The notes beneath the pieces were generated by a model that was not told the origin of the DNA, ran no database searches, and saw only the letters and a list, made by a program, of their open reading frames with translations. Of a stretch of 51,313 bases of DNA, positions 13,823 through 51,313 are shown piece after piece (the stretch's first letter is position 1; every line of letters starts with the position of its first letter). The DNA is taken from NCBI GenBank assembly GCA_028688755.1, contig JAQTXN010000001.1, positions 1 to 51,313 of the forward strand, in the 5' to 3' direction. The DNA comes from Methylococcales bacterium. GTDB taxonomy: Bacteria > Pseudomonadota > Gammaproteobacteria > Methylococcales > Methylomonadaceae. The translations under genes were made by a program, and so were the position numbers.

Positions 13823-13869
13823 CGCGCGGATAACCAAATGAATTTAAAAAGTAAAGGATAGGATTTTTC

Positions 13870-24931: not shown

Positions 24932-25013
24932 CCCGATTTACTCAAATAGGAATGATTTGCATTTAAAATAAAAAGCATTATGATTGCTCCATAACAATTA
25001 TGGAGAAATCATT

Positions 25014-26454: not shown

Positions 26455-27642
26455 ATGCGAAGATTTTTGCTGTTATCTATTTTTGCGAGTTGCGCTAGTT
26501 TTGCCGATTCTGTTTTACCAAACAGTGAAAATCTGAGTGTTAAAGCGCAACTTGGACAAAAATTATTTTTTGATAGCAACTTGTCCGAGCCAGCAGGTCA
26601 AGCCTGTGCGAGTTGCCATAATCCAGATTTTGCTTTTACCGATGCCGATAAAACGCAACCGACTTCAAAAGGTGTAGACACGACGTTGCATGGGAATCGT
26701 AATGCACCAACGGCGATGTATATGGCTTATTCGCCAGCGTTTCATTTCAATAGAACTGAAGGGCTTTACATGGGAGGTCAATTTTTTGATGGTCGAGCGG
26801 CAACGCTTGAAGACCAAGCAAAAGGCCCTTTCTTAAATCCTGTTGAAATGGCAAATCCGAATGCTGAAGCGGTTGTTAAAAAAGTAAAAGTCGCTAGTTA
26901 TGCCAGTCAATTTGACGCAATTTACGGCAATGGCGCGTTAAACAACACTGAGCAAGCCTACGATTACATTGCCAATGCGATTGCCGAATTTGAACGAAGT
27001 GCGGTGTTTAATCGCTTTTCGTCAAAGTATGATTTTTATTTATTTGGCAAAGCTGCTTTCACAGCACAAGAACGCCGCGGTTTAGCGGTATTTGAAGGCA
27101 AAGGAAATTGTGCGGCGTGTCATCCTAATCGACCGATGGTAAAAGGCGAACCGCCGCTATTTACGGATTTTAGTTATGACAACATTGGTGTGCCTAAAAA
27201 TCCCGAAAGTCCTTTTTATACAATGTCGAGTAAATATAATCCTGATGGTGAACAGTTTGTCGATTTAGGATTAGGCGGGCATTTAAACATTTCAGCAGAA
27301 GATGGAAAGTTTAAAGTGCCAACCTTGCGAAATATCGCGCTCACGTCACCTTATACACACAACGGTTATTTTACAAAGTTGCGTAATGTGGTGGAATTTT
27401 ATAACACGCGAAAAGTTAAACGTCGTTGTGCAAAACCATTGACTAACGAAACGGAATCATTAGCGCAAAAATGTTGGGCAACGCCTGAAGTTTCGCAAAA
27501 TGTGAATTTTGGCGAACTGGGGAATTTAAAATTAAGCCAACGTGATATTGATGATTTGGTGGCATTTCTTGAAACGCTAACCGATGGTTATGATGCAAAA
27601 TCGCCTTGGACTTCACTTGCATCGCCTGAATTTAAAAATTGA
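26455..27642 (+). CDS. Di-heme cytochrome c peroxidase family protein (CCP/MauG family)
   Basis: Signal peptide and two CxxCH motifs (CASCHNP, CAACHPN). Family motifs GNRNAPT, FFDGRA..LEDQA, PTLRNIALTSPYTHNG. Confidence 0.85.
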   Translation: MRRFLLLSIFASCASFADSVLPNSENLSVKAQLGQKLFFDSNLSEPAGQACASCHNPDFAFTDADKTQPTSKGVDTTLHGNRNAPTAMYMAYSPAFHFNRTEGLYMGGQFFDGRAATLEDQAKGPFLNPVEMANPNAEAVVKKVKVASYASQFDAIYGNGALNNTEQAYDYIANAIAEFERSAVFNRFSSKYDFYLFGKAAFTAQERRGLAVFEGKGNCAACHPNRPMVKGEPPLFTDFSYDNIGVPKNPESPFYTMSSKYNPDGEQFVDLGLGGHLNISAEDGKFKVPTLRNIALTSPYTHNGYFTKLRNVVEFYNTRKVKRRCAKPLTNETESLAQKCWATPEVSQNVNFGELGNLKLSQRDIDDLVAFLETLTDGYDAKSPWTSLASPEFKN

Positions 27643-27658
27643 TAAGGGGAGAATAATC

Positions 27659-27856
27659 ATGTATGTATGCGTTTGCAAAGCGGTAACAGATAAACAAATT
27701 GTCAGCACGATTGAAAGCGGTGTTTGTACACGTCGTGAACTCACACATTGTTTAGGCGTTGGAAAAGATTGCGGTAAATGTAACAAAGAAGTGAAGAACT
27801 TATTAAATCAATACAGCGGACAAAATGACAATTATCAGCTTGCCGCATCAGCTTAA
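27659..27856 (+). CDS. bfd: Bacterioferritin-associated ferredoxin
   Basis: [14 protein letters not shown]...GVGKDCGKC is the four-Cys BFD-like [2Fe-2S] motif. A GGGGAG RBS lies upstream of ATG 27659. The longer track start overlaps the CCP gene. Confidence 0.8.
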
Positions 27857-27869
27857 AAAGGTGAAGAAA

Positions 27870-28334
27870 ATGAAAGGTGATAAAAAAGTTATTGAGTTTC
27901 TCAATAGAGCATTAGAAAACGAATTAACGGCAATTAACCAATACTTCTTGCACGCGAGAATGTACAAAAATTGGGGATTTTCCAAACTCAACGAAAAGGA
28001 ATATCACGAATCCATCGATGAAATGAAACACGCTGACCAATTGATTGAGCGAATTTTATTTTTAGAAGGGCTACCTAATTTACAAAACATCGGTAAAATT
28101 TTGATTGGGGAACATCCGCAAGAAATGTTGCAATGCGATTTGAAATTAGAAAATATCGCCGTGCCGCTTTTGCGTGAAGCGATTGTCTATTGTGAAAGCG
28201 TGAAAGATTTTGTATCGCGGGAAGTGTTTTCTCATATTTTAGAAAGCGAAGAAGAACATATTGATTGGCTTGAAACACAATTGGAACTAATTGAAAAAAT
28301 AGGCATTCAAAATTATTTACAGTCACAAGTGTGA
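27870..28334 (+). CDS. bfr: Bacterioferritin
   Basis: [36 protein letters not shown]...[12 protein letters not shown] is the canonical Bfr sequence, including the heme-ligand Met region. Start chosen at ATG 27870. Confidence 0.9.
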
Positions 28335-32149: not shown

Positions 32150-32350
32150 TTAAAGTACGGTTACTTCTTCAGCTTGTGGACCTTTTTGACCTTGAGTCAC
32201 TGTGAATTGGACTTTTTGTCCTTCATCTAATGATTTGAAGCCTGAACCAGCGATATTACGGAAGTGAACGAATACATCTGGACCACTTTCTTGTTGAATA
32301 AAACCGAAACCTTTTTCAGCGTTGAACCACTTAACTGTACCTGTTGCCAT
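32150..32350 (-). CDS. cspA: Cold-shock protein, CspA family
   Basis: [30 protein letters not shown] contains the RNP1/RNP2 motifs; 66 aa. Confidence 0.95.
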
Positions 32351-32556: not shown

Positions 32557-32982
32557 TTAATCCCAGCAACCTGCTGTATCGGGTGAGGTGCCATTTGCCC
32601 CTTTTTCACCTGTATTTTTAAGTGTCAATGTGCCACATACATCAGAGGTTTGTGCGCCATCTGGCGTTGCTGTGAGCGTGTAAGAAGTGGCATCAGACAC
32701 CAAACTTAATGTGTACGTTTTCGTCCCACCATCGGTAGGAACTTGATTAGCAAAAATCTGAGACATATCTGTGCCATCCGTTCCAGCTTTGTAACTATTA
32801 TTTTCAACGCGCCACTGTTCCATTGCCGTCGCAAAAGACACTAACGCGCCTTGCGCTTCAACACGTTTAGCTTTTCTAACGTGACTTTGATAACTTGGAT
32901 AACCCACACTCGTTAAAATCCCAACAATCGCCACTGCAATCATCAATTCAATTAACGTAAAACCCTTTTGTTTAGTTTTCAT
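32557..32982 (-). CDS. Type IV pilin (PilE/PilA-like major or minor pilin)
   Basis: Class III signal and N-methylation motif KQKGFTLIELMIAVAIVGIL. C-terminal disulfide loop C...C (CGTLTLKNTG...AGCWD). GGAG RBS upstream. Confidence 0.9.
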   Translation of the reverse strand: MKTKQKGFTLIELMIAVAIVGILTSVGYPSYQSHVRKAKRVEAQGALVSFATAMEQWRVENNSYKAGTDGTDMSQIFANQVPTDGGTKTYTLSLVSDATSYTLTATPDGAQTSDVCGTLTLKNTGEKGANGTSPDTAGCWD

Positions 32983-33463
32983 TTTTTACTCCGCTACGAA
33001 AGCCCGTTTTTTTTAAAATTTTAGTGCTGTAAAGCACGTCGTGACCTAAATTGAACTCGCCTAATAATACGACAATTTGCCCAATTTGGTGATGCACATC
33101 AGCTTCACTTTTGCCATGAACCATTGCAAATAAATTGTAATTCCAATCGGGTAAATGGCGCGGACGATGATAACAATGGCTCACAAATGGCAATCGTCCA
33201 ATGATTTCACCCAATAAATCCACGCGCTCATCTGGCACATTCCAAACGGTCATGCCGTTAAAGGTGTAGCCTAATTTGTAATGATTTGGCACGGCACCAA
33301 TGCGGCGAATGACACCATTTTTCTGCATTGCCTCAAATCGCGCCATGACGGTTTCAACAGGCAAATTCAATTGTTCTGCAACCGCATGATAAGGTTTTGA
33401 AACGAGCGGCAAACCTGCTTGTGTGGCTCTCATAATTTGCAAATCAATTTCTGAAAAATCCAT
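32972..33463 (-). CDS. Siroheme decarboxylase subunit, NirH/AhbB-like (AsnC-fold)
   Basis: IRRIGAVPNHYKLGY...VSHCYHRPRHLPDWNYNLFAMVHG...LYSTKILKKTG closely follows the NirH-type signature as I recall it. Confidence 0.7.
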   Translation of the reverse strand: MDFSEIDLQIMRATQAGLPLVSKPYHAVAEQLNLPVETVMARFEAMQKNGVIRRIGAVPNHYKLGYTFNGMTVWNVPDERVDLLGEIIGRLPFVSHCYHRPRHLPDWNYNLFAMVHGKSEADVHHQIGQIVVLLGEFNLGHDVLYSTKILKKTGFRSGVKNEN

Positions 33464-33919
33464 TTATGCCTCCAACTTTAAACCAACAAAATACTCGTTA
33501 ATTTTTGGCATATTAAAAACGTGTAAACCTGTTTGCAGCTCAATTTTTTCAAGTGTTTCGTCGAGTTGCAGCGGTGTTTCGGTTGCGACGACAAACCACA
33601 TATTTAATTCATGATTACGCTGATAGTTATGTGCGACTTCGGGAAACGCATTGACGATTTCAATGACTTTTTCAAAATCCGCGTCAGGAACTTTCAGTGC
33701 AGCAAGCGTTAACGCACCGCCCATTTTCTCAGCATGATATAACGCACCAAAACGAGTGAGCGTGCCATTTTCAAGCAATTTTTTTAACCGATTTAACACA
33801 TCGTCTTCAGTTAAACCTAATTCATTTGCTACTTGCAAATACGGCTCATCACAAATCGGAAAGCCATCTTGCAAATGATTTATCAAGCTCGCATCAATTT
33901 CGTCGTAATGTTTAGTCAC
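33464..33919 (-). CDS. Siroheme decarboxylase subunit, NirG/NirD/AhbA-like (AsnC-fold)
   Basis: GTG start. LINHLQDGFPICDEPY...LTRFGAL...VAHNYQRNHELNMWFVV matches the NirD/NirG-type motif HNYxRxxxxNxWF. Its stop abuts the next gene's ATG. Confidence 0.7.
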   Translation of the reverse strand: MTKHYDEIDASLINHLQDGFPICDEPYLQVANELGLTEDDVLNRLKKLLENGTLTRFGALYHAEKMGGALTLAALKVPDADFEKVIEIVNAFPEVAHNYQRNHELNMWFVVATETPLQLDETLEKIELQTGLHVFNMPKINEYFVGLKLEA

Positions 33920-34820: not shown

Positions 34821-34850
34821 TTTGTTTCCGATGTTGAATAAAAAACTATT

Positions 34851-34965
34851 CGCCAAATTGTGTAGGATTCTGCTTTAAGAATGAACCCAAACACAGGGCG
34901 ACTAAAACAAACAGTGTAACTGAACAACAGATAAATAGGCGATTTTCACTACGAAAACCGATGAT
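34851..34965. repeat. Copy A of a direct repeat of about 115-125 bp (partner at 40476..40599)
   Basis: Hand alignment: CGCCAAAT(T/C)GTGTA(G/A)GATTCTGCTTT, AAACACAGG, CTAAAA, a perfect 16-mer ACAGTGTAACTGAACA, GGCGATTTTC(A/G)CTAC and a terminal ATGAT are shared in the same order and orientation. Confidence 0.7.
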
Positions 34966-38670: not shown

Positions 38671-38765
38671 AAAAATCTCCTCTAAAGTTAAATGGTTTAA
38701 AAACACTCCATAAAACTTGAGACGAGTTTATTTAATTGCACCGCCACTTTTTAGTAAAAAGATTT

Positions 38766-39728
38766 TTATTTTCCCGAAACCAAAACTGTTCGCTCGCCCA
38801 TTTTTGTAAATTTAATCGGCAACGCGCTGGCAATCGTATTGAGCGCAAGACTTAAATTATCGGCAGGGAATGTGCCGCTGACACTGAGGTTTTGTGGCGT
38901 ATTTTCAGACAGTTGCAATTCAACATCGTGATAACGCGCTAATTGCGCTAAAACGTCACGCAACGGTTGTTTTTTGAAAATCAATTTTCCTGTTTGCCAT
39001 GCGGTAACGCTATTCACATCGGTTTTTTCCAGCGGCGCAATTTGCCCTTGCTCGTTATAACTGGTTTGCAAACCAGCAATAATGTGACGCGGCGTTGGAT
39101 TTTCAGATGTCGTAATTTGCACTTCGCCTTCTAAAACCGTGACAGCCACTTGATTGTCGTGCTGATAAACATTAAAACGGGTTCCAACATCTTCAATCAC
39201 GCCTTTTGCCGCCGCAACGGTGAAGGGTTTTTTATCATTGTGAACGACAGAAAATAACGCTTCGCCTCGAATAAAATTAACCTCTCTGCCCATAAAACCG
39301 TAATGCACGTTTAATTGCGTATCCGTATTTAAAATAATTTGCGAACCATCTGCTAATTGAACCGTTTGTCGTTCACCTTTTGCTGTTTGATAGGTTTGCG
39401 TGGTGGCGTGAAAATACAAATACGGCGAAATCCCCATCATCAAAATAACTGAAAATGCCAATGCTAAACGTGGTGAAAACAAGCGTGGTGGCGCGGGTGG
39501 GCGTTGCAAATAATGGCGCGCGGCGGTGAGTTCTTGATTGATGAGCGGTTCAACAGAATTTAAGTTCTGCCAAAAATTTTGCACGTCTTGATAAGCCTGT
39601 GCGTGCGCGGGTTTTTTAAGCAACCATCTGGAAAAATCGCGGCGTTCTTCTTCTGTACAATCGTGAGATTGTAAACGTGTGAGCCAAAAACTTGCCTGTT
39701 GATGAATAGAATTCGATTTTGTTTTCAT
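38766..39728 (-). CDS. fecR: FecR-family anti-sigma factor / transmembrane sensor
   Basis: N-terminal anti-sigma region (QASFWLTRLQS...W), a single TM and a periplasmic FecR domain (Y.T.KGERQTVQLADGSQIILNTDT...). It sits between the ECF sigma and the TBDR. Confidence 0.85.
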   Translation of the reverse strand: MKTKSNSIHQQASFWLTRLQSHDCTEEERRDFSRWLLKKPAHAQAYQDVQNFWQNLNSVEPLINQELTAARHYLQRPPAPPRLFSPRLALAFSVILMMGISPYLYFHATTQTYQTAKGERQTVQLADGSQIILNTDTQLNVHYGFMGREVNFIRGEALFSVVHNDKKPFTVAAAKGVIEDVGTRFNVYQHDNQVAVTVLEGEVQITTSENPTPRHIIAGLQTSYNEQGQIAPLEKTDVNSVTAWQTGKLIFKKQPLRDVLAQLARYHDVELQLSENTPQNLSVSGTFPADNLSLALNTIASALPIKFTKMGERTVLVSGK

Positions 39729-39786
39729 AAAGAAGTTTGAGGCGATAAAGGCAGGCTATGAAAACGATGATTATAAACGAACACGC

Positions 39787-40299
39787 TTACAAATCCTGAC
39801 CGACGCTTTTAGCAAAACAATGCGCGAGTGCTTTCGCGCAATAACGTTCAACCGTGCGTTGCGGTAAATTCAATGCTTGAGCAATTTCGCTGTGCGATTT
39901 GCCATCAAAACGATGCAATAAAAAAACATGACGATACACGTCAGGCAGTTCGTTTAAGGCTTGCAAACACTGTTTCAAAATTTGTTGACTATCCAAATGA
40001 GCGGCAATTTCAGGTTGTGGCGAATGCACATTATCAAACACAACTTCGGTGTCGGAATCAAAATGCTTTTTATGCACTTTATCGTGGCGATGATAATCAA
40101 AACCTAAATTTGCAATGATTTTATAAAGATACGCGCGGGGATTTTGAATGGTTGCAGAATCAGGATGTTGCAACAAACGTAAATAGGCTTCTTGTACTAA
40201 ATCTTCTGCGTCAATTTGACTAAAGCTGGAATTCGCAAAACTTAATAACTCTAAACGATGATGACGAAATAGCGTCTCGAAAAAACGGTGTTTGGACAT
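39787..40299 (-). CDS. fecI: ECF sigma-70 factor, FecI-like
   Basis: Region 2 (DAEDLVQEAYLRLL...YLYKIIANLGFDYHR) and region 4 (LPDVYRHVFLLHRFDGKSHSEIAQALNLPQRTVERY). ATG 40299 is preferred over the TTG at 40323. Confidence 0.85.
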   Translation of the reverse strand: MSKHRFFETLFRHHRLELLSFANSSFSQIDAEDLVQEAYLRLLQHPDSATIQNPRAYLYKIIANLGFDYHRHDKVHKKHFDSDTEVVFDNVHSPQPEIAAHLDSQQILKQCLQALNELPDVYRHVFLLHRFDGKSHSEIAQALNLPQRTVERYCAKALAHCFAKSVGQDL

Positions 40300-40475
40300 A
40301 ACGGGCAGTAAAAAATAATTCAATTACCGTTTGTTAAGGCAACAACTGAGCCGATGAAATTAAAACAACGCTAAGTCAGTAAGTTATCGATTTAGAAAAT
40401 AAGGGGTTATTTTTTAATTAGGGGATATGCCGCAGGAGTGAGCGATATGACACATACCAATGTTGAAAGAATTAT

Positions 40476-40599
40476 CGCCAAATCGTGTAAGATTCTGCTT
40501 TTGAAATGAATCGAAACACAGGCAAAGTCTCTAAAATTAGAATGAACAGTGTAACTGAACAGCAGAAAAACGGGCGATTTTCGCTACAAAATCTATGAT
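40476..40599. repeat. Copy B of the direct repeat of about 115-125 bp; contains the recD start codon at its 3' end
   Basis: Same blocks as copy A, with two short insertions. My hand alignment gives roughly 80 percent identity outside the indels. The terminal ATGAT is the recD ATG (40595) plus two nt. Confidence 0.7.
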
Positions 40600-42235
40600 T
40601 GAAACGCAAAACTTTTCCCGTCTGGACACGGCTTTTGCAACATTTTTTAGCGAGTCAGCTCCGATTTTTGAAGCAGAAAAAATAGCTTTAAAAAACTTAC
40701 TCACACAACTTTCGTGGGCGCATTATCAAGGTAATACTTGTTTAAAATTAACCGCCGCGCAAACGCAATTGTTATTTAACGCAAAATTAGCCTCGTCATC
40801 TGAAAACGCAGAAAGCATTTTGCCGTTACATATCGATGAATTTGGGCATTTGTATTTGCGTCGTTATTGGGATTATGAACAGCGTTTGATTGTTAAATTA
40901 CGCGAAATGAAACGAAGTCATTCCTCTGTTTCAAATTTAGAAGAATTGCTCGACACTTTTTTTCCCGTGCTTGACACAGAAAAAGATTGGCAACGCGAAG
41001 CCGCAAAATGCGCCGTTCAGCAAAATTTCACGATTATCACGGGTGGCCCTGGAACGGGGAAAACGACAACTGTGGTAAAAATTCTCGCTATTTTGCAAAC
41101 CTTGAACACGCTAAAACCGTTACATATCGCGCTTGCCGCGCCAACGGGAAAAGCGGCAATGCGTTTGCAAGAATCGATTACAAAAAGCAAAAGTGCGTTG
41201 CAATGTTCGCAAGAAATCAAAGATAAATTGCCCGAAAATGTCACCACCATTCACCGTTTGCTGGGTGCAAAACCACCATCACCGTATTTTCGATACAACG
41301 AAAAAAATCTACTTCCTTACGATTTAATTGTGATTGATGAAGCGTCAATGATTGATTTGGCGATGATGAGCAAATTAGTGGCTGCAATCAAACCTTCCGC
41401 ACGTTTGATTTTACTTGGCGATAAAGAACAGCTTGCTTCGGTAGAATCTGGGACAGTTTTAGCCGATTTGACGCAAGCCTTGGCAGAAAATACCGTTGAA
41501 CTCAAAAAAACGTATCGATTTAAAGAGGAAATCAAAGCCTTTGCCGAAGCGATAAATACAAAAAACGCGCCGCTTGCGTGGAAAATCTCGACACAAAAAA
41601 ACGACGTGATTGCACATTTAGGTGACGATTATTTGCATTATTTAGTCGAAAAACATCACGACTATTTTCATAAAATTAAACATGGCGCAGCATTTGAAGA
41701 AATTTACGCCGCGTTCAATCAATTCCAAATTTTATGCGCTCACCGTGAAGGCAAAAACAGCGTTTCAGATTTGAATTATCGTTTAGAAAAAGCGTTGCAC
41801 AACGAAAAAAAAATCCATTTAGCGTCGAATTGGTATGTCGGTAGACCCGTCATGATTACGCAAAATAATGCGGCACTACAGCTTTATAACGGCGATATTG
41901 GTTTATGTTTGCACGATGAAAAAGGCGACACAAAAGTTTTCTTTCCGCGTCCAGATGGTAGTTTTCAAGGCTTTTCACCTGCGCGTTTGCCGCCTTGCGA
42001 AACCGTTTTTGCCATGACCATTCATAAAAGCCAAGGCTCAGAATTCAACGAAGTTTGTGTGTGTTTGCCTGATTATCCACAAACGATTTTGACCAAAGAA
42101 CTGCTTTATACCGCGATTACTCGCGCTAAAGAACGTATAAAATTAGTTACCAGCGAAAAGATTTTTAATTTTACTGTTCAAGCAAGCGTCACTCGCGTTA
42201 CGGGTTTAGTGTCGCAATTTCAATCTATGCAATAA
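40595..42235 (+). CDS. recD: Exodeoxyribonuclease V alpha subunit (RecD, SF1 helicase)
   Basis: Walker A GGPGTGKTTTV, LIVIDEASMID, LLGDKEQLASVESG, TIHKSQGSEF and LLYTAITRAK. Confidence 0.9.
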   Translation: MIETQNFSRLDTAFATFFSESAPIFEAEKIALKNLLTQLSWAHYQGNTCLKLTAAQTQLLFNAKLASSSENAESILPLHIDEFGHLYLRRYWDYEQRLIVKLREMKRSHSSVSNLEELLDTFFPVLDTEKDWQREAAKCAVQQNFTIITGGPGTGKTTTVVKILAILQTLNTLKPLHIALAAPTGKAAMRLQESITKSKSALQCSQEIKDKLPENVTTIHRLLGAKPPSPYFRYNEKNLLPYDLIVIDEASMIDLAMMSKLVAAIKPSARLILLGDKEQLASVESGTVLADLTQALAENTVELKKTYRFKEEIKAFAEAINTKNAPLAWKISTQKNDVIAHLGDDYLHYLVEKHHDYFHKIKHGAAFEEIYAAFNQFQILCAHREGKNSVSDLNYRLEKALHNEKKIHLASNWYVGRPVMITQNNAALQLYNGDIGLCLHDEKGDTKVFFPRPDGSFQGFSPARLPPCETVFAMTIHKSQGSEFNEVCVCLPDYPQTILTKELLYTAITRAKERIKLVTSEKIFNFTVQASVTRVTGLVSQFQSMQ

Positions 42236-42238
42236 AAA

Positions 42239-43789
42239 ATGAAAAATAAATTAACGATTGATAAACGATTGCGCCAGCGCGTGTTACCGCTGATGTTTTT
42301 GATAATTACCTTGCTAATGTCAATGCTCCTTTTGATGCGAATTGACGGTGTGCAAAAACACAATTTAGACGTGGCGACCGAAGGCGCACGCAACATTTTT
42401 CGGATGATTGTTTTAACACGGCAGTGGAATGCAGATCATGGTGGTGTTTATGTTTTTGTCGATGAGAAAACACCTGTTAATGAGTATCTTGACCATCCGA
42501 AAAAAGTCATTGAAACAACAGAAAAAGAAAAGCTCACGTTATTAAATCCTGCTTACATGACGCGCCAAATCGCTGAATTAGCGCAAAACGACCCCGACAT
42601 ACATTTGCGCTTGCACATTACCAGTCTTAAACCGATTCGCCCACAAAACGCCGCAGATGCGTGGGAAGTTGAAGCGTTAAAACGCTTTGAAACAGGCGAG
42701 CAAGAAATTTCGAGCGTCGAAATTGAAAATGGACAGCGTTATTTGCGTTATATGTCGCCGTTGATGGTGAAAGAAAGTTGCCTTTTGTGTCATGAAAAAC
42801 AAGGTTATAAATTAGGCGATGTACGCGGCGGCATTAGCGTTAGTTTGCAAATGGAATCGATTGATAAATCCGTTCACCATGAAATCGTTGCCAGTGCTAT
42901 TAGTTACGCTGTCTCTTATGGCTTGCTCATTATGATTACTTGGGGCTTGATTGAATTGTTAGCGCGGCGTTGGCGGGCGTTAAATGACAACATCGAAATG
43001 CTTGAAACAACGCGCAACGAATTAGTTGAAAATGAAAAAATGGCTTCTTTGGGGCGATTAGTTTCAGGTTTTGCACACGAAATTAACACGCCTGTCGGTG
43101 TGGCGGTTGGCGCAATTAGTCACGGCGATGAAACCATTGCAACCTTAAAAACCTTGCTTGCAAAAGAAGAAGTTACCGAGCAAGAACTTAATCAACAACT
43201 CGATTATTTAAGTGAAGGGCATTATTTAGCGTTAGCCAATTTGCGTCGCGCCGCCGATTTGGTGCAACGTTTTAAACGTACTTCGATAGATAGAGATTCG
43301 CAACAAAAACGCGAATATCAACCCGCCGAACTCATTCAAGATGTTTTGACCACCTTGCATAATCAGTTAAAACGAACAGAAATTAGCGTCGAGGTGACTT
43401 GCTCGGAAAAATTAAAACTTTACGGTACACCAGGTTTATTAGAACAAGTGCTGACGAATTTAATTACCAACAGCATTTCGCACGGTTTTGATAATGGCAC
43501 CCGCGCAGGTAAAATTAGCATCAATGTGTCACAATCGAGCGCAAATCGATTGATTGTCGATTACCAAGATGATGGCGTTGGTATGAATGAAGATGTGAAA
43601 CAACAAGCATTTGAACCTTTCTTTACAACCAGTCGTGATAAAGGCGGCTCAGGCTTAGGTTTATATGTAATTTACAATATCGTCACACAACAAATGGCAG
43701 GTACCATTCAAATGACTTCTGTTTCAAATGCAGGCGTTCGTTTTCACATTGAATGTCCGATTGAAGCAATTCCCTATAATACGTTATGA
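42239..43789 (+). CDS. Sensor histidine kinase with DUF3365-type heme-c (CxxCH) periplasmic sensor domain
   Basis: TM, then NPAYMTRQI...ADAWEVEALKRF...RYMSPLMVKESCLLCHEKQGYKLGDVRGGISV (DUF3365-like with CLLCH), then a second TM. H-box FAHEINTP. HATPase N and G boxes (NLITNSISHG, DDGVGM, GGSGLGL). Confidence 0.85.
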   Translation: MKNKLTIDKRLRQRVLPLMFLIITLLMSMLLLMRIDGVQKHNLDVATEGARNIFRMIVLTRQWNADHGGVYVFVDEKTPVNEYLDHPKKVIETTEKEKLTLLNPAYMTRQIAELAQNDPDIHLRLHITSLKPIRPQNAADAWEVEALKRFETGEQEISSVEIENGQRYLRYMSPLMVKESCLLCHEKQGYKLGDVRGGISVSLQMESIDKSVHHEIVASAISYAVSYGLLIMITWGLIELLARRWRALNDNIEMLETTRNELVENEKMASLGRLVSGFAHEINTPVGVAVGAISHGDETIATLKTLLAKEEVTEQELNQQLDYLSEGHYLALANLRRAADLVQRFKRTSIDRDSQQKREYQPAELIQDVLTTLHNQLKRTEISVEVTCSEKLKLYGTPGLLEQVLTNLITNSISHGFDNGTRAGKISINVSQSSANRLIVDYQDDGVGMNEDVKQQAFEPFFTTSRDKGGSGLGLYVIYNIVTQQMAGTIQMTSVSNAGVRFHIECPIEAIPYNTL

Positions 43790-45342
43790 AAATTATCCGA
43801 AATACCGAGGCACCGACAGCAAGTGCAGATGAATCCCCGTTGCAACGTGTCGAAACGCCGCGTTACCAATGGAAAGTCTTAATCGTTGATGATGAACCCG
43901 ATGTTCGAACATTGACGCGAATTAGCTTGCGTGATTTTAGTTTTGCCAATCAAACGCTTGAATTTATTGAAGCCAGTTCAGCACGCGAAGCAAAAAATTT
44001 ATTGCAACAAAATAGCGATATTGCCTTAGCGTTAATTGACGTAGTGATGGAAACCGATGATGCAGGCTTAAAACTGGTTGAATATATTCGCAATGATTTA
44101 AAAAATGCCATGATTCGCCTTGTGATTCGAACAGGGCAACCAGGTTTAGCTCCAGAGCGTTACGTTATCGACCATTACGATATTGATGATTACAAAGACA
44201 AAACCGAATTAACCGCTGCGCGACTTTATACAACCGTGCGCTCGGCGTTAAAAGCGTATCGAGATTTGCAAATTATTGATACCAATCGTCGTGGTTTAGA
44301 ACGTGTGTTGCAAGCAACGCCAGCGATTTATCAATTAGGTCATTCGCCATTATCGGATTTTTTTAACGGCATGCTCACGCAAATGATTGGGCTTTGTCGA
44401 CTTTCAACGTCTAGTCATATTGGCTCACTTGAAGGCGCGATTATGATGCTTGATGAGGATGAGCCAAAACTTCGCGCTTCCACAGCACAATTTGTAAAAA
44501 GCCAACGCTTTGAAGAAATTCATCAGCAATGTATTCATGCCATTTTACGCGACGACGACCCGATTTCTAGCCTGCGAAATAGCTCTGAGGTATTGCCGCT
44601 CATTGTTTTAAATCAACCTGTTGGCTATATCTACATTGAACCGATTGAAATTTTGAGCGATGTTGATAGAAATTTAATCCATATTTTCGCGCGGCAATGT
44701 TCACAAGCCTTAGAAAATCATGAATTGCACGGCAACATTTTGGCATCGTTTGACAGTGCCATTGAGATGCTTGCTGAAATTGCCGAATACAAAGATCAAG
44801 CAACGGGTGGTCATGTGAATCGCCTTGATTGTTATACCCATGCCATTGCAATTGAAATGGGCATAGACCAAGAAGAAGCGATTCGTTATGGAAAAGCCAG
44901 TCGTTTGCACGATGTTGGAAAAGTGGGGATTCCCGATTACATTTTGACAAAACCCAGCAAATTAACGGTTGATGAATTTGAAATTATCAAAAAACATACG
45001 ACCTTAGGCGGCAATATCCTCAGCCACGACAAAGCGTTTACCTTGGCAAAACAAATTGCGCTTGGACATCATGAGTTTTGGGATGGTAGCGGTTATCCAC
45101 TCGGCATTAAATCAAAAGATTTACCGCTTGCTGTGCGAATTGTTTCTGTTGCCGATGTGTTTGATGCGATGGTGAGCTGGAGACCTTATAAAGAACCTTG
45201 GAGCATTCAAGAAGCGCGTGATGCCATTCAAGACGGTGCAGGCACACAATTTGACCCTGACGTTGTGAATGCTTTTTTAAAATTGCTCGACAGCGGTGAA
45301 TTTGAACTTGTTATTGCCAGAGCAAACGAAGCGTTATCTTGA
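43786..45342 (+). CDS. Response regulator REC + GAF-like middle domain + HD-GYP (c-di-GMP phosphodiesterase)
   Basis: REC (VLIVDDEPD...LIDVVMETDDAG...K), a central region of about 150 aa, then HD-GYP motifs HDVGKVGIPD and HHEFWDGSGYP. Its ATG overlaps the kinase stop (ATGA). Confidence 0.9.
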   Translation: MKIIRNTEAPTASADESPLQRVETPRYQWKVLIVDDEPDVRTLTRISLRDFSFANQTLEFIEASSAREAKNLLQQNSDIALALIDVVMETDDAGLKLVEYIRNDLKNAMIRLVIRTGQPGLAPERYVIDHYDIDDYKDKTELTAARLYTTVRSALKAYRDLQIIDTNRRGLERVLQATPAIYQLGHSPLSDFFNGMLTQMIGLCRLSTSSHIGSLEGAIMMLDEDEPKLRASTAQFVKSQRFEEIHQQCIHAILRDDDPISSLRNSSEVLPLIVLNQPVGYIYIEPIEILSDVDRNLIHIFARQCSQALENHELHGNILASFDSAIEMLAEIAEYKDQATGGHVNRLDCYTHAIAIEMGIDQEEAIRYGKASRLHDVGKVGIPDYILTKPSKLTVDEFEIIKKHTTLGGNILSHDKAFTLAKQIALGHHEFWDGSGYPLGIKSKDLPLAVRIVSVADVFDAMVSWRPYKEPWSIQEARDAIQDGAGTQFDPDVVNAFLKLLDSGEFELVIARANEALS

Positions 45343-45373
45343 TTTCTAGCCAATAAAACTAACGGAAATTTTC

Positions 45374-47035
45374 ATGTCACAAAACGCTACCATTCTTTTT
45401 GAGCCTGATGCTTATTTGTTGTCCGAACCCAAATTGATGGGGCGACAAGCAGCGGGAAATAGTTTTTTACGCGCCGCTGTTGCAGGGCGAAATAATGAGC
45501 CGCTGTTTGCTTATACGCCACATCAAAAATCGGCTGAAATCTTTGCGAATTTAGTAAAACAAATTGAACCTACTGCACAAGGTCAATGGATTCCAGCGGA
45601 TCGTTTAGATTTACTTTCACAAATTGGCACGCTGTATATGCCAGGGCCTGGTTTAGATGTGGCGGCGAAATTACGTTTAAGAGCAGGGTGCAATGCTTAT
45701 TCACTTGTGGGCGTAACGCATACCACTGCTTCACACCGCGCAATGGATGCGATTACAGGTTTGCTTGCTGCGCCTGTGATGCCGTGGGATGCGTTAATTT
45801 GCACGTCAACCGCCGTGTTAGAAACGGTGAAATTATTGCTCAATGCCGAAATCGAAGCCTTGCGTTGGCGTTTTGGTTCGCAAATTCAAATTACGCTGCC
45901 GCAATTACCTGTGATTCCGTTAGGCATTCATTGTGATGACTTTGATTTTTCAGCTGAAAATAAAGCCTCTGCGCGAGCGGCGTTGAATATCGGTGAAGAC
46001 GAAATCGTTTTAGTGTTCGTTGGGCGATTATCGTTTCATGCGAAAGCGCATCCTCATGCCATGTATCTTGCCGCGCAAGAAGTAGCGAAATCGACGGGCA
46101 AAAAAATCACATTTTTGCAATGCGGTTGGTTTGGTAATGATGCTATTCAAGCCAGTTTTATTGACGGTGCCGCGCAGTTTTGCCCCGATGTTCGTGCAGT
46201 TTTTGTGGACGGACGACATCCACAATTTTCACAGCAAAGTTGGGCGAGTGCGGATATTTTCATTTCGCTTTCTGACAATGTGCAAGAAACGTTTGGCATT
46301 ACGCCAATTGAAGCGATGGCGGCGGGTTTGCCTGTAATTGTGAGCGATTGGAATGGCTACAAAGATACCGTGCGTGACGGGATTGACGGTTTTCGAATTC
46401 CAACCTTTATGCCGCCACCTAATTTAGGTGAAAACTTTGCCAAAATGCACGAAGCAGGCACGCTGAATTACGATATTTATTGCGGTTTGAGTTGTCAAAC
46501 TATTTCTGTTTCGATGGTTTCGTTGGTCGAAAAATTAAAATTGCTGGTTGAAAATGAGACCTTGCGGCAAGAAATGGGCGTGGCAGGTAAAATTCGAGCA
46601 AAATCGCACTTTGATTGGCGCGTCGTTTATCCGCAATATCAAGCTCTGTACGCGCAATTGAAAACGTTACGTTTAACGGCGTTGCAAAATACAGATTGGC
46701 AAAAACAATTACAAACTGCACCCAATGTTGCGGCAAATCGCCTTGACCCGTTTTACAGCTTTGGACATTACCCAACGACGTTAATTCAGCCGCAAACGCA
46801 AGTTGTTTTGCAAGATAGTAATGCGCTGCAAACCTATCTTTCACTTATCAAAAATCCGCTGTTTAATTACGCGGGTCAAATTTTACCGAGTGTCGCAAGC
46901 GTTGAAAAAATAGTCATGGTTTTAAAAACGCCGTTGAGTATCGCAGAACTTTCGCCGCAAAGTGGTTTGGATTTAGGTGCGAGTGTTTTAGCTGTTTCGG
47001 TTTTGGCAAAAATGGATTTGGTACGTTTAAGTTAA
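45374..47035 (+). CDS. Glycosyltransferase, GT4 (group 1) family, with a C-terminal extension of about 150 aa
   Basis: GT-B C-terminal domain with the EX7E motif: ETFGITPIEAMAAGLPVIVSDWNGYKDTVRDGIDGF. Confidence 0.8.
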   Translation: MSQNATILFEPDAYLLSEPKLMGRQAAGNSFLRAAVAGRNNEPLFAYTPHQKSAEIFANLVKQIEPTAQGQWIPADRLDLLSQIGTLYMPGPGLDVAAKLRLRAGCNAYSLVGVTHTTASHRAMDAITGLLAAPVMPWDALICTSTAVLETVKLLLNAEIEALRWRFGSQIQITLPQLPVIPLGIHCDDFDFSAENKASARAALNIGEDEIVLVFVGRLSFHAKAHPHAMYLAAQEVAKSTGKKITFLQCGWFGNDAIQASFIDGAAQFCPDVRAVFVDGRHPQFSQQSWASADIFISLSDNVQETFGITPIEAMAAGLPVIVSDWNGYKDTVRDGIDGFRIPTFMPPPNLGENFAKMHEAGTLNYDIYCGLSCQTISVSMVSLVEKLKLLVENETLRQEMGVAGKIRAKSHFDWRVVYPQYQALYAQLKTLRLTALQNTDWQKQLQTAPNVAANRLDPFYSFGHYPTTLIQPQTQVVLQDSNALQTYLSLIKNPLFNYAGQILPSVASVEKIVMVLKTPLSIAELSPQSGLDLGASVLAVSVLAKMDLVRLS

Positions 47036-47282
47036 TCAAATGACTATGTGAATTGAACGACAAAAACCGCTTTTTTGTACAAAAAGAAGGGGGGGCTATG
47101 TAAAGCAGCATTACTTGTTTTGCACTACCAAATTTTTATTTATTATCTAACCCATTGTATTGTTGGATTTTTATTTTTGATGTGCAACTTTTCTGGAATT
47201 GCAAGAAATTACAAGGTTGGCGTATTGAAGTATTTTATAATGTTTCCTTAAATTTGAATTTTTGGAAAAATTTATAACCGCA

Positions 47283-50200
47283 ATGACAACTCAAACAAAA
47301 CTCGAATTCTTATTCATTGACGCAAACGTCGCCGATAAAAAAACGTTCATCAACAGCGCGGCTTCAAATGTTAAAATCGTTGAATTAAATGATAAATCTG
47401 ACGCCTTAACGCAAATCGCCGCCGCACTCCAAGGCGTAAAAAACCTCAATGCCATTCACATCATCTCGCACGGCTCAGAAGGTGAGTTGGATTTTGCAAA
47501 CGGCACGTTAAACAGCACAAATCTTTTAACCTACCAATCACAACTCAAAAAAATCGGCACATCGCTTTCAAAAGACGGCGACATTTTGCTTTACGGTTGC
47601 GACGTGGCAAAAGGTGACGACGGCGGCGTGTTTATCAATTCTTTAGCGAAATTGACTAAAGCTGATGTTGCTGCATCGACTGATTTTACAGGTGCGGCAA
47701 GTTTAGGCGGGGATTGGGTGTTAGAAAATCAAACGGGTGACATAAATTCTGCGGTTTTAGCGTTTGAGTCTTACTCTAAAACACTGACGGCATTACCAGC
47801 AAATACATATTTCAATTCTGCAAATGGTCATTACTATCAATATGTTGCGACATCTTTAAGCTGGGCGGATGCTAAAGCAGCAGCTGCAAACAGCACCTTA
47901 AATGGATTAACAGGATATTTGGTAACAATTACTTCTCAAGATGAAAGTGATTTTCTTTTTTCAACATTCTCAAGTCGTCCAGACAGTGGCAATAGTTGGT
48001 TTGGCGCAAAATATGTTTCTGGTACTTGGAAATGGGATGCTGGTCCAGAAGCTGGACAGACTTTAAGTTACAACAGATGGCATTCTGGCGAACCTAATGG
48101 TGGAGGTAATGAATATGCCTACTTGTATAACAGAACAAGAACAGATCCCAATGACGGACTCAATGGAGATTGGTATGACGAAGGTGGACCTGCTAGCTAT
48201 ATTGTCGAATACGGTGCAGCCGCTGCGGACACAACACCACCAGTTTTCGATGTAGCTCCAGCCGCGTCAAATGTATTGACCACTACATTAGATTTATCTG
48301 CCAGCATTGATGAAGCGGGTACGATTTACTACGTCGTTGTGCCAAATAATGCGAGTGCGCCAAGCGTAGAGCAAGTTTTAGCGGGGCAAGATTCAACAGG
48401 TACAGTCGCTTTCAAATCTGGTAATTCAGCCGTCACAACAACGCCTTTTACGGGAACCTTTAATCTCACAGGTTTAACAGCAAGCACCGATTATGATGTT
48501 TATGTTGTAGCTAAAGATGCGGCTGGCACACCAAATGTGATGGTTGCAGCGACGAAAGTTGACGTAACAACAAATGCCGTACCAACCATTACTTCACTTG
48601 ACAGGTATTACAACCTTGTTGGCAACGGAAGCACATCTGGTGATTACATTGAATTACCTTCTTTTAATCCAAGCGTTTTTGGCAATGCTTTTACACTTGA
48701 AGCATGGGTTAAAGTTTCGAGTTTGGACAGTTGGGCGCGTATTTTAGATTTTGGAAGAGGTACTGGTTCAGACAACATTATATTTTCCACATCGGGTGAT
48801 GGTAACAATGGACCATTAGCTTTTAGTTCCTATAATGGTGGGAGTGGTATCAATGTACTTGCATCTAACGATGCAACTGGAAAATTACCGCTTAATACAT
48901 GGACACATGTCGCGGCAACTTACGAATACACCAGTGGAAGTACAGCAACCGTCAAGTTATATAAAGACGGTTCGCTTATTCAAACTAACACCTCTGCACA
49001 ACCCATTGCCTCGGTTACTCGTAACTTAAACTACATTGGCAAAAGTAACTGGTCACAAGATGCTTATACAAATGGAAAAATAAAAGATGCACGGGTTTGG
49101 TCTGTGGCGCGTACTGCACAGGAAATTTCAGACAATAAGACAACGCTCACAGATAGCACGGGACTTTACACCCGCTATTTATTAAATGACGGCACTGGCA
49201 CGACTGTTAAAAACTCATCACCTACAGGATCAAGTTTAGATGCAACTATTCACCCTGGTACAGGCGTGTGGGTTTCTAGCACTACTTCTAATGCAACATT
49301 GTCAGGATTAAATGGAATAGAAGAGAATACAGTTTTTCTTAACACATTTTCTATTGCAGATGACGGTACCAGTGCGACCGTTACATTGAGTTCAACAAAT
49401 GGAACATTGCATGTCTCAAACAGTGTAACAAATGGTCTCACAAGCGGAATTAGCAATAATGATACGAATTCTGTCACCGTCACAGGCACTCTCACAGCTA
49501 TCAATGCCACGATTGCTGGGAATGGCATCACATTAACCCCTGACATCACACATACCAGTAATTTCACTTCTGTTATTACAATTGGAGCTGATGATGGTGC
49601 AGGCGGCATTGCAACGAACAGCTTTAGCGTCGTTGTCGCTGCTGATAACGATGCGCCAACCGCAACTAATTTAAGTGCTGCTGAAACATTTGTTGAAGAT
49701 ACAGCGTTGAATTTAACAGACATTGTGGTCACTGATATTGATTCTGCAACTGTCACAGCCACTTTGACTTTATCAGACGTATTAGCTGGAACCATTTCAA
49801 CGGCAACATCTAACTCTGTTACGTCAACATTTACAAATGGTGTGTGGACAGCAACGGGGGCAAAGGCAGATGTGAATACATTGTTAGCTGGCGCAACATT
49901 CACACCGACAGCAAATTACAACCAGAATTTTACAATCGCCACAGCCATTACTGACGGAACGACAGGAACTAAATCGTTCTCAGGTACGCCAGTCAATGAT
50001 GCCCCAACCATTTCAAGCGTACCGAATACAGTTTTAGCTGTCACAACAGGACAATCAGCCGCTTTAGCGGATTTCACCGTTGCTGATGTTGATAGCGAGA
50101 ATTTAACGGTTACGCTGACAGCGACAAATGGCACGATTGGCAGTGTAACGGATGCTGATACAAACGTGGCAGGTATTCAAGTCACAGGTTCAGCGGCAAC

Positions 50201-51313
50201 AATCAATACAGCGTTAGCAGCGGCAACTTTTACAGCAACTAATGCAGGGGCGGCTTCAATTGGAATTTCTGTCACGGATGCTATCGAAACGGCGACTGCA
50301 ACTTATAATTTAATGGCAACGAATCCGCCAGAACCAACACCTGCACCTGCACCAACGCCTGTTCCAACTCCAACTCCTGCGCCTGTATTTGAAAAACCAG
50401 TGTCAAAAGACGTTGAATCACAAGTCCCTTCGGCAAGTGGTGTAAAAGGCGATGGAAACGGTGATGGCATTTCAGATATTGATCAAAAAAATGTGATTTC
50501 GATTCCGACGCAAAAAGATTTGCGTGAAACAGCTGATACCCCGAAAGTCTTTTTATCGATTGAATTACCGCAAGGTCAAACTTTGACAAAAGCCGAAGTG
50601 AAGCCTGTTGCAGAAATGATAAAAGAAAAACCGATTACTTTTGCAACTGAAGTTGTGAATGATAAAGGTGAAAGAGTAGTGCAAGAAGTCGCCATTACTG
50701 AAGAAACTGCGCCGTTTGGTTTGTTTGAATTTAATCTTTCGGGGGTTTCACAAACGTTTGATTCTGTAACGGGTGCAATAAAAGCTGGCACGTCAAGTGT
50801 GAAACTGTATTTGGACGACAACCAAACCGTTGAAAAATACCTTAAACAAACGGTTTCTGGAACGTGGGAACCCATTCCATTTACTTACGTTTATGATGCA
50901 AAACTCGGAAAAACCGTTGTTTCGATTTCGCTCACTGACGGTGATAAATTCGACTTAGACGGCAAAGTGGATGGTGGAATTTCAGATCCAGGTACCCCGA
51001 TTATTACGCCAAAATTAACAGCTGCGCCGATTCCTGTAGCGTTACCTGCACCGATTGAAAAAGTATTTATGGGGTATGGCAGCTCGTTTGAATTAACCTC
51101 AGGGGCGGCGCAAGTTTTTGGCTCATCGCTGCGTGAAGTGTTGACGTTAAAATCGGGAGCTAGCAACGTAGTGATTGACCAAAATGTGGAGCAAGTGAAT
51201 TTGGCGGGGAAATTTGCCGATTACTCATTTGAGCAACAAGGCAACAGCTTGAAAGGCATCAATAATTCGACAATTGTTGCAAAAGTGTTCGTGCAAGACG
51301 ATAGCAATGGCAC
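47283..51313 (+). CDS. Giant multidomain surface/adhesin-like protein, 3'-open at window end (DUF4347, C-type lectin, Ig/FN3-like, LamG, 3 cadherin-like modules, PT linker, Ca-binding-like motifs)
   Basis: I hand-translated codons starting at positions divisible by 3, from ATG 47283 to nt 51313, and met no stop (1343 codons). An in-frame TGA at 47226 bounds it upstream. It is absent from the track because no stop lies in the window. Motifs are listed in the findings. Confidence 0.85.
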   Translation, partial: MTTQTKLEFLFIDANVADKKTFINSAASNVKIVELNDKSDALTQIAAALQGVKNLNAIHIISHGSEGELDFANGTLNSTNLLTYQSQLKKIGTSLSKDGDILLYGCDVAKGDDGGVFINSLAKLTKADVAASTDFTGAASLGGDWVLENQTGDINSAVLAFESYSKTLTALPANTYFNSANGHYYQYVATSLSWADAKAAAANSTLNGLTGYLVTITSQDESDFLFSTFSSRPDSGNSWFGAKYVSGTWKWDAGPEAGQTLSYNRWHSGEPNGGGNEYAYLYNRTRTDPNDGLNGDWYDEGGPASYIVEYGAAAADTTPPVFDVAPAASNVLTTTLDLSASIDEAGTIYYVVVPNNASAPSVEQVLAGQDSTGTVAFKSGNSAVTTTPFTGTFNLTGLTASTDYDVYVVAKDAAGTPNVMVAATKVDVTTNAVPTITSLDRYYNLVGNGSTSGDYIELPSFNPSVFGNAFTLEAWVKVSSLDSWARILDFGRGTGSDNIIFSTSGDGNNGPLAFSSYNGGSGINVLASNDATGKLPLNTWTHVAATYEYTSGSTATVKLYKDGSLIQTNTSAQPIASVTRNLNYIGKSNWSQDAYTNGKIKDARVWSVARTAQEISDNKTTLTDSTGLYTRYLLNDGTGTTVKNSSPTGSSLDATIHPGTGVWVSSTTSNATLSGLNGIEENTVFLNTFSIADDGTSATVTLSSTNGTLHVSNSVTNGLTSGISNNDTNSVTVTGTLTAINATIAGNGITLTPDITHTSNFTSVITIGADDGAGGIATNSFSVVVAADNDAPTATNLSAAETFVEDTALNLTDIVVTDIDSATVTATLTLSDVLAGTISTATSNSVTSTFTNGVWTATGAKADVNTLLAGATFTPTANYNQNFTIATAITDGTTGTKSFSGTPVNDAPTISSVPNTVLAVTTGQSAALADFTVADVDSENLTVTLTATNGTIGSVTDADTNVAGIQVTGSAATINTALAAATFTATNAGAASIGISVTDAIETATATYNLMATNPPEPTPAPAPTPVPTPTPAPVFEKPVSKDVESQVPSASGVKGDGNGDGISDIDQKNVISIPTQKDLRETADTPKVFLSIELPQGQTLTKAEVKPVAEMIKEKPITFATEVVNDKGERVVQEVAITEETAPFGLFEFNLSGVSQTFDSVTGAIKAGTSSVKLYLDDNQTVEKYLKQTVSGTWEPIPFTYVYDAKLGKTVVSISLTDGDKFDLDGKVDGGISDPGTPIITPKLTAAPIPVALPAPIEKVFMGYGSSFELTSGAAQVFGSSLREVLTLKSGASNVVIDQNVEQVNLAGKFADYSFEQQGNSLKGINNSTIVAKVFVQDDSNG
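47805..48215 (+). other. C-type lectin-like domain inside the giant ORF
   Basis: YYQYVATSLSWADAKAAAA...GYLVTITSQDESDFL...WFGA...WKWDAG...YNRWHSGEPNGGGNEYAYL...GDWYDEG...YIVEYG. The EPN triplet is at 48090-48098 and WYD (the WND position) at 48171-48179. The domain contains no cysteines. Confidence 0.75.
48590..49200 (+). other. LamG / concanavalin-A-like lectin domain inside the giant ORF
   Basis: GDYIELPSFNPSVFGNAFTLEAWVKVSSLDSWARILDFG...NTWTHVAATYEY...VKLYKDGSLI...NYIGKSNW...GKIKDARVWSVARTAQEI is a typical Laminin_G_3 pattern. Confidence 0.75.
49299..50321 (+). repeat. Three tandem, diverged cadherin-like/Ig-like protein modules of about 109-116 aa
   Basis: Module boundaries are marked by DNDAPT (49644-49661), VNDAPT (49992-50009) and a degenerate TNPPEPT (50319-50339). 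Internal blocks recur: (I/V)(A/T)D(D/I/V)D(G/S)...TVTL(S/T)..NGT and the ...ATFT(P/A)T motif. Confidence 0.6.
50325..50384 (+). repeat. Pro/Thr/Ala-rich low-complexity linker (PPEPTPAPAPTPVPTPTPAP)
   Basis: Direct translation of 50325-50384. It separates the cadherin-like modules from the C-terminal DGNGDGISD / DLDGKVDGGISDPG region. Confidence 0.8.

Follow-up and report, generated by a model that had tools for sequence, protein, structure and literature searches.

A predicted heme c sensor kinase and its HD-GYP response regulator, the probable conserved unit of a mosaic gene region in a Methylococcales bacterium

Contig JAQTXN010000001.1 of a Methylococcales bacterium (GenBank assembly GCA_028688755.1), here called the window, was analysed over its full length of 51,313 nucleotides (nt). 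Toward its end it encodes a sensor histidine kinase (HK), a response regulator (RR), a glycosyltransferase (GT), and the 5' part of a giant open reading frame (ORF), which a first-pass annotation had joined into one adhesion module gated by cyclic di-GMP (c-di-GMP). We consider it likely that the region instead consists of separate evolutionary units lying side by side, because the GT, RecD, and DUF4347 families are absent from the loci of RR homologs and closely related genomes part at the GT stop codon. Comparison of homologous loci points to the HK-RR two-component pair as probably the sole conserved functional unit of the region, and by its domain composition this pair belongs to a known kind of gas- or redox-responsive c-di-GMP switch.

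Gene order

The genes for HK (42239-43789, 516 amino acids [aa]) and RR (43786-45342, 518 aa) overlap in an ATGA. The GT gene (45374-47035, 553 aa) follows after a gap of 31 nt, and the giant ORF begins at 47283, 247 nt past the GT, and has no stop codon before the window end at 51313. All four lie on the plus strand, and every coordinate and junction given for them in the first-pass annotation was correct. Missing from it was recD (40595-42235, plus strand, 546 aa), which stops 3 nt 5' of the HK start and encodes a protein of the exodeoxyribonuclease V alpha subunit type (NCBIfam TIGR01447, 502.6 bits versus a cut-off of 310). Because this full-length gene directly precedes HK, there are five co-directional genes, not four. 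No recB or recC is found in the window alongside it. Homology searches retrieved hundreds of full-length homologs per gene, which shows that the genes are real; the giant protein is the exception, having no full-length orthologue. The nearest relatives are Methylococcales. The window comprises the whole contig, and the designation "giant" is an extrapolation, because the contig end cuts this ORF at 1343 aa.

Conservation of the kinase-regulator pair

The RR family was sampled in 80 metagenome loci, of which 54 had enough upstream sequence and 45 had at least 2 kb downstream. Directly 5' of the RR gene, 50 of the 54 informative loci encode a kinase on the same strand that shares the catalytic core. 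The GT family, RecD, and DUF4347 are absent from all 80. The pair also stands alone in Methylomonas sp. LL1 and Dechloromonas denitrificans. When the partner kinases (loci L093-L172) were compared in a kinase-core alignment (A3), the 50 cases comprised 17 Tll0287-like, 16 hemerythrin, and 6 NIT sensors, together with a few of the PAS type and a single MHYT. Judged by these domain assignments, the partner sensors form a redox/O2/N-oxide theme, and the swapping of heme c, hemerythrin, and nitrate/nitrite sensors points to a control of c-di-GMP by N-oxides or O2. In Dechloromonas (L012), a Tll0287 heme c kinase and a hemerythrin kinase stand in tandem 5' of one RR gene.

The picture from the GT side, based on 80 species loci carrying the GT family out of more than 574 matching loci, is similar. 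Near the GT, only one species encodes RecD together with the Tll0287 kinase and the DUF3369 regulator, at a locus (L018) that is on the same contig of a sister metagenome-assembled genome as L010. This locus is collinear with window positions 38765-47037 at 94.9% nucleotide identity, beyond which come fliL, HIT, and Rrf2 genes. Another close relative (L177) is collinear with positions 40457-47034 at 87.9%; a 92-aa ORF and the gene of a sigma54 regulator follow there. The order recD-HK-RR-GT is thus common to the window and these two loci, the only ones in which recD adjoins the HK-RR pair, and the giant ORF is confined to the window. The three genomes, which are 88-95% identical at the nucleotide level, part exactly at the GT stop codon (breakpoint 47034-47037). 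According to these alignments, the GT stop codon is a rearrangement hotspot and the giant ORF one of three alternative occupants of the site behind it. GT orthologues at 79-86% identity have yet other neighbours, namely GlgP/Rrf2, PDH E1/hisD, or a release factor. The synteny of HK, RR, GT, and giant ORF in relatives, which the first-pass annotation had set as the test that could refute its module, is therefore not conserved from either side. Of its overall claim the sensor and phosphodiesterase parts stand, as detailed below, and its wiring of the sensor pair to GT and adhesin is not supported.

The heme c sensor kinase

The HK was characterized by Pfam searches, hydropathy, motif inspection, and the kinase-core alignment. 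It matches the Tll0287-like/DUF3365 family (PF11845) with 81.8 bits (cut-off 24.1) at aa 84-203 and HATPase_c at aa 399-508. Two predicted transmembrane segments (aa 13-39 and approximately 215-242) flank the sensor domain and place it, at aa ~40-214, in the periplasm; attachment of heme c depends on such an extracytoplasmic position. The H-box reads FAHEINTP, with the codon of the putative phosphorylated His280 at 43076-43078. A c-type heme attachment motif, CLLCH (aa 181-185; 42779-42793), is located in the DUF3365-like domain, as had been noticed in the first-pass annotation, and Cys181 and Cys184 are the sole cysteines of the periplasmic part; a distal cysteine of the Tll0287 style is absent. 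The CxxCH motif is invariant in all 19 heme-type kinases linked to the RR family, each of which contains a single copy. DUF3365/Tll0287 domains have recently been described as the "sCache_heme" domain, in which CXXCH is 99% conserved family-wide and whose members behave as NO sensors when fused to signalling outputs (bioRxiv 10.64898/2026.02.01.703092). A sequence search of the PDB with the whole HK matched kinase cores only, and the sensor domain alone matched nothing. Since the single HK sequence thus fails to reach Tll0287 in the PDB, its sCache_heme membership rests on Pfam. Nevertheless, the PF11845 match, the CXXCH motif, and the predicted position between two transmembrane segments agree with the earlier assignment of a heme c-type sensor to this kinase.

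Among characterized proteins, the Cache_heme-HAMP receptor of P. azotoformans resembles the HK in having a periplasmic Cache-fold domain with a CXXCH motif for heme c between two transmembrane helices (bioRxiv 10.64898/2026.02.01.703092). In both proteins the sensor is fused to a signalling output, an arrangement belonging to the class with NO-sensor properties, but the output is HAMP alone in P. azotoformans and a histidine kinase core in the window HK. Proteins of the stand-alone Tll0287 type differ in their Cys/His ligation of the heme, whereas the window sensor contains no extra periplasmic cysteine. From its sequence, the HK is therefore a candidate periplasmic heme c kinase that probably responds to NO or to redox state.

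The response regulator and the proposed signalling pathway

Pfam searches, a family alignment (A2), and the published architecture identify the RR as a regulator of the RpfY type and as a member of a large family of full-length homologs. Its REC domain (aa ~29-150) scores slightly below the Pfam cut-off (29.8 versus 30.2 bits), but the signature residues D35, D36, D85, T116, and K139 are invariant in the alignment; the predicted phospho-acceptor D85 is encoded at 44038-44040. A GAF-like DUF3369 domain (PF11849, 78.8 bits versus a cut-off of 27.2; aa 151-316, 44236-44733) connects REC with a full-length HD-GYP domain (HD_5/HD in Pfam; aa 328-493, 44767-45264) that contains the motif HHEFWDGSGYP. 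The HD (375-376), HHE (428-430), and GYP (436-438) motifs are intact, as had been stated in the first-pass annotation, and H343, H375-D376, H404, H428-H429-E430, D433, and D457/D460 are all invariant. The REC-DUF3369-HD-GYP ("RpfY") architecture is shared with VCA0210 of V. cholerae, which hydrolyses c-di-GMP to GMP and also acts on cGAMP, and with DVU0722 of D. vulgaris, whose isolated HD-GYP domain is active (bioRxiv 10.1101/2021.11.05.467447). With every metal-binding and motif residue conserved in a VCA0210-like architecture, the earlier classification of the RR as an HD-GYP c-di-GMP hydrolase appears sound. Unlike these two proteins, the RR is partnered with a heme c kinase; the match is one of architecture, and the phosphodiesterase activity of the RR is a prediction.

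Other sensor kinases are known to act through REC-HD-GYP proteins. In Xanthomonas, the sensor kinase RpfC controls RpfG, a REC-HD-GYP c-di-GMP phosphodiesterase. This pairing resembles that in the window, but RpfC is a hybrid kinase that senses DSF, and RpfG is devoid of DUF3369. The closest functional analogue is the NosP-NosK-NosR system of Burkholderia, where an NO-controlled HK passes phosphate to a REC-HD-GYP regulator with an effect on c-di-GMP phenotypes (PMC12570481), which corresponds to the scheme proposed here. However, the Nos sensor is a separate cytoplasmic heme protein with a FIST domain, and NosR has a degenerate motif (HG-GTP) and no DUF3369. The RR missed the cut-off of the NosR family (NCBIfam NF053512; 125.4 bits versus 400), matched it in the HD-GYP part only, and thus does not belong to it.

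The domain membership of both proteins, the heme motif, the predicted periplasmic topology, the intact phospho-relay and HD-GYP residues, and the adjacency of HK and RR suggest the following pathway. Heme c would be covalently attached at CLLCH by the Ccm machinery, and this periplasmic heme, on binding NO or changing its redox state, would alter autophosphorylation of the kinase at His280. The phosphoryl group would be transferred to Asp85 of the RR, and the GAF-like DUF3369 domain might then relay the phosphorylation state to HD-GYP, which is expected to hydrolyse c-di-GMP and possibly, as VCA0210 does, 3'3'-cGAMP. The effectors would be encoded elsewhere in the genome. Only in a narrow lineage does the pair appear to have been placed between recD and the GT4-type GT gene, where it is probably co-transcribed with both. 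The pair would represent a clean and well-conserved example of a periplasmic heme c kinase with an RpfY-type HD-GYP regulator in methanotroph relatives, and it would offer a test case for the recent proposal that sCache_heme receptors are NO sensors.

No c-di-GMP output was recognized close to the pair. An Rfam scan of the whole window gave no match at the gathering score, and neither a GEMM-I nor a GEMM-II c-di-GMP riboswitch was found ahead of the giant ORF, where the leader gave chance-level Rfam matches only at E <= 10. This leader, an AT-rich spacer (47036-47282, plus strand, 30% GC) that starts at the synteny breakpoint, is no more structured than shuffled sequence (folding z-score 0.17). 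A promoter-like site was predicted within it at 47119-47146, and a terminator scan detected no terminator-like site in this interval, a result that neither proves nor excludes read-through. In agreement with the first-pass annotation, domain searches found no PilZ, LapD, LapG, or type I secretion system (T1SS) among the window ORFs, the region past the contig end being out of view. In the Lap system of Pseudomonas (LapA/LapD/LapG/LapBCE), the c-di-GMP level governs the display of a giant T1SS adhesin, and the earlier proposal for the window took up this concept. The window differs in that LapD, LapG, and an adjacent T1SS are not present and in that its giant protein has DUF4347 at the N-terminus. 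A heme-gated c-di-GMP switch wired to a GT and a giant adhesin without Lap parts would be a new form of adhesion control, if true, but it is unsupported.

Further c-di-GMP enzymes are encoded within 10343-14934 and 22054-23820, where a second and unrelated pair consists of a PAS hybrid HK (REC, Hpt) followed by a 354-aa REC-HD-GYP protein and where a PAS-PAS-GGDEF cyclase is encoded as well. Given that the organism has many c-di-GMP enzymes, the location of the HK-RR pair is not special.

The glycosyltransferase family

Pfam places the GT among Glycos_transf_1 proteins (62.3 bits, aa 199-343). It has no transmembrane segment, and its EX7E motif (46286-46312) contains E305 and E313, both of which are invariant in a family alignment (A1). 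An AlphaFold model (pLDDT 80) matched PimB', GlgM, MshA, and HepE in Foldseek searches, with E = 1e-11 to 1e-14 for the first three; PDB profile matches cover the nucleotide-sugar-binding half only, and a conserved C-terminal extension of approximately 200 aa contains no known domain. As modelled, the GT is a soluble cytoplasmic retaining GT-B/GT4 enzyme. Homology to the galactoglucan (exp/wge) enzymes of S. meliloti was considered and dropped, as a plasmid search at E <= 1e-10 gave no Sinorhizobium record.

The GT family, whose members are 55-62% identical across classes, is significantly associated with RTX proteins and their secretion. In 20 of 80 species, a T1SS ABC transporter, a membrane fusion protein (MFP), or an RTX-rich ORF was encoded no more than 10 kb from the GT, compared with none of 80 control loci (Fisher p = 5e-7), and the difference persists among loci of at least 12 kb (17/61 versus 0/29 controls; p = 9e-4). 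In seven loci (L005, L081, L068, L049, L085, L062, and L078), co-oriented operons of the type RTX-(methyltransferase)-GT-GT2-ABC-MFP-OEP were found, the parts of which were confirmed by Pfam; carriers of these operons include Janthinobacterium (among them sp. BJB412), an Azonexaceae genome, and Bauldia. Three other loci (L013, L037, L070) have the GT followed by the RTX gene, the order seen in the window, and on plasmid p5 of Azospirillum brasilense Sp7 the GT gene is found among genes for a Ca-binding protein, an M10 peptidase, rfb functions, and a HlyD/ABC pair. In loci L088 and L173, too, the family is embedded in RTX/T1SS operons. A Glyco_trans_4_3 partner GT is present in 22 of the 80 GT loci, and S-adenosylmethionine (SAM)-dependent methyltransferases are often nearby. 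Literature searches returned no description of an association of this GT family with RTX/T1SS and no relevant work on DUF4347 or RTX-operon GTs. That this widespread and uncharacterized GT4 family works with RTX/T1SS proteins is a testable lead.

The DUF4347 protein

The visible 1343 aa of the giant protein (47283-51313, plus strand) were analysed with Pfam, NCBIfam, and by composition. They start with DUF4347 (aa 10-162, 47310-47768; 176.7 bits), contain a LamG/ConA-like domain (Laminin_G_3; aa 452-616, 48636-49130; 103.6 bits), a Pro/Thr linker near aa 975-995, and a choice-of-anchor U domain (aa 1142-1240, 50706-51002), and show no tandem or internal repeats in a repeat search. A C-type-lectin-like region (aa 193-282, 47859-48128) scores just under the Pfam cut-off (21.5 versus 22.6 bits). 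An EPN motif (SGEPNGG) of the kind typical of mannose-type Ca-dependent sugar binding lies near aa ~280-305 (48120-48200), and the usual cysteines of C-type lectin-like domains are absent from the region. Of the description as a giant lectin adhesin, the LamG/ConA-like domain is solid, but the C-type lectin domain falls below the threshold and the size is extrapolated.

No full-length orthologue of the protein was found; the best match covers 61% of the query at 42% identity. No signal peptide is predicted, a single cysteine and one chance GGxGxD motif occur in the visible part, and the C-terminus is missing from the contig. DUF4347 relatives often end in RTX repeats (HemolysinCabind). A protein without a signal peptide, with few cysteines, and with RTX-bearing relatives fits a T1SS substrate, as far as sequence features can indicate. 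Taken together with its position behind the breakpoint, its domain content marks the giant ORF as a strain-specific, mosaic, lectin-domain-bearing DUF4347 gene with its own AT-rich leader. Two other DUF4347 genes in Methylococcales have neither a GT nor a dedicated T1SS nearby.

Alternative interpretations

The single c-di-GMP-gated module of HK, RR, GT, and giant ORF, in which a heme signal would lower local c-di-GMP and so control glycan synthesis, adhesin display, or both, would be in line with the co-direction and tight spacing of the genes, the intact HD-GYP domain, and the lectin-type domains of the giant ORF. It is nevertheless very improbable, since relatives do not preserve the synteny of the four genes, the giant ORF starts at a synteny breakpoint with an AT-rich leader of its own, and the window contains no c-di-GMP receptor, riboswitch, LapD/G, or T1SS. 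Alternatively, the GT and the giant ORF may form a functional pair independent of the sensor, in which the GT either glycosylates the giant protein in the cytoplasm before its export or synthesizes the glycan that this protein binds or that anchors it. The RTX/T1SS association of the GT family in a quarter of the sampled species, the co-oriented operons, the GT-RTX gene order, and the A. brasilense context speak for such a sensor-independent link, and a second Methylococcales lineage (L003/L013) has the GT followed directly by a giant gene with DUF4347 and RTX, repeats that are common in DUF4347 proteins. However, the GT-adjacent giant protein of L003 has only the DUF4347 head in common with that in the window, most Methylococcales GT orthologues adjoin GlgP/Rrf2, hisD, fliL, or a sigma54 regulator instead, and the two other Methylococcales DUF4347 genes lack a GT. 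Because a partner is missing in most of these cases, the pair is not established; the absence of RTX repeats and a T1SS from the visible window and fold matches to generic GT4 enzymes only, with no signature of a protein glycosyltransferase, make it a possibility of limited weight. In its general form, the proposal would be that this GT4 family specifically serves the RTX and giant surface proteins exported by T1SSs, either as a cytoplasmic protein glycosyltransferase acting before export or as the synthase of the glycan that they bind, which we regard as tentative. Dedicated GTs of this kind are known from other secretion routes: TibC is encoded beside the adhesin TibA, which it modifies. Likewise, HMW1C is a cytoplasmic GT encoded beside the secreted adhesin HMW1, its substrate (PMC4550697). 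Both differ from the window GT, a GT4 enzyme, in fold (GT41 or heptosyltransferase) and in the two-partner or autotransporter secretion of the adhesin. If the proposal is true, the GT would be a T1SS counterpart of HMW1C or TibC, and the window GT and DUF4347 gene would be one instance. For a glycan synthase, the Rhizobium PrsDE T1SS offers a parallel, as its exported Ca-binding lectin-domain proteins (Rap lectins, Ply glycanases) act with the organism's own exopolysaccharide (PMC9298526, PMC5061743); this is an analogy only.

The GT could also be a housekeeping enzyme of glucan or sugar metabolism with no functional link to either neighbour. Its gene is divergent from that of glycogen phosphorylase in loci of at least four Methylococcales species and also in L001, L007, and L008, and among the proteins closest to it in structure and sequence are GlgM, sucrose-phosphate synthase, TreT, and MshA. 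Yet the GlgP adjacency is limited to one clade, in which the genes are divergently transcribed, and the same family occurs inside RTX/T1SS operons across several classes, so that a housekeeping role is rather unlikely. A reading as an anti-phage or conflict system, with a RecD-like helicase and a "GT4-conflict" enzyme as its components, was rejected as extremely improbable. The GT has a weak match to PF20706 (20.1 bits versus a cut-off of 26), a family found on many GT homologs, and RecD matches the helicase cores of PADLOC models, but none of HK, RR, GT, and giant ORF has a PADLOC match, RecD exceeds the recD equivalog cut-off along its full length, and the genomic context is housekeeping.

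Several points speak against our interpretation of the region as separate units around a gas- or redox-sensing HK-RR pair. NO as the ligand would be suggested by one characterized homologue, which has a different output domain. Owing to the tight spacing (3 nt, -4 nt, and 31 nt), recD, HK, RR, and GT are likely co-transcribed in the narrow lineage, and the GT is possibly co-expressed with the sensor pair. Because c-di-GMP diffuses, missing synteny cannot exclude regulation in trans. The order of GT and DUF4347/RTX gene in L003/L013 means that the adjacency of GT and giant ORF may be non-accidental. Finally, the 3' end of the giant ORF and whatever follows it lie beyond the contig.

Other features of the window

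A direct repeat of approximately 115 nt is present at 34841-34956 and 40466-40591 (81-83% identity). The second copy is the 5' region of the recD-HK-RR-GT cluster (plus strand), which is collinear with L177; a promoter-like site at 40447-40475, just upstream, suggests a promoter role. The copies bracket a 5.6-kb cassette with genes for PepSY_TM, a TonB-dependent receptor, FecR, and an ECF sigma factor. L177 lacks this cassette, and its single repeat copy runs straight into recD; the iron-uptake cassette thus looks like an insertion that duplicated the 5' region of recD.

The ORFs at 24984-25802 and 25769-26437 overlap and have no Pfam match, but together resemble one outer-membrane beta-barrel and may represent a frameshift or a pseudogene. 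They are located directly 5' of genes for a di-heme cytochrome c peroxidase (26455-27642) and a bacterioferritin (27825-28334). On the minus strand, small genes at 32150-32350 and 32557-32982 occupy an apparent gap; their products are a CspA-like cold-shock protein and a type IV pilin whose N-terminus has the motif FTLIELMIAV, and a gene pair for a NirD/L-like siroheme decarboxylase (32972-33919) lies beside them.

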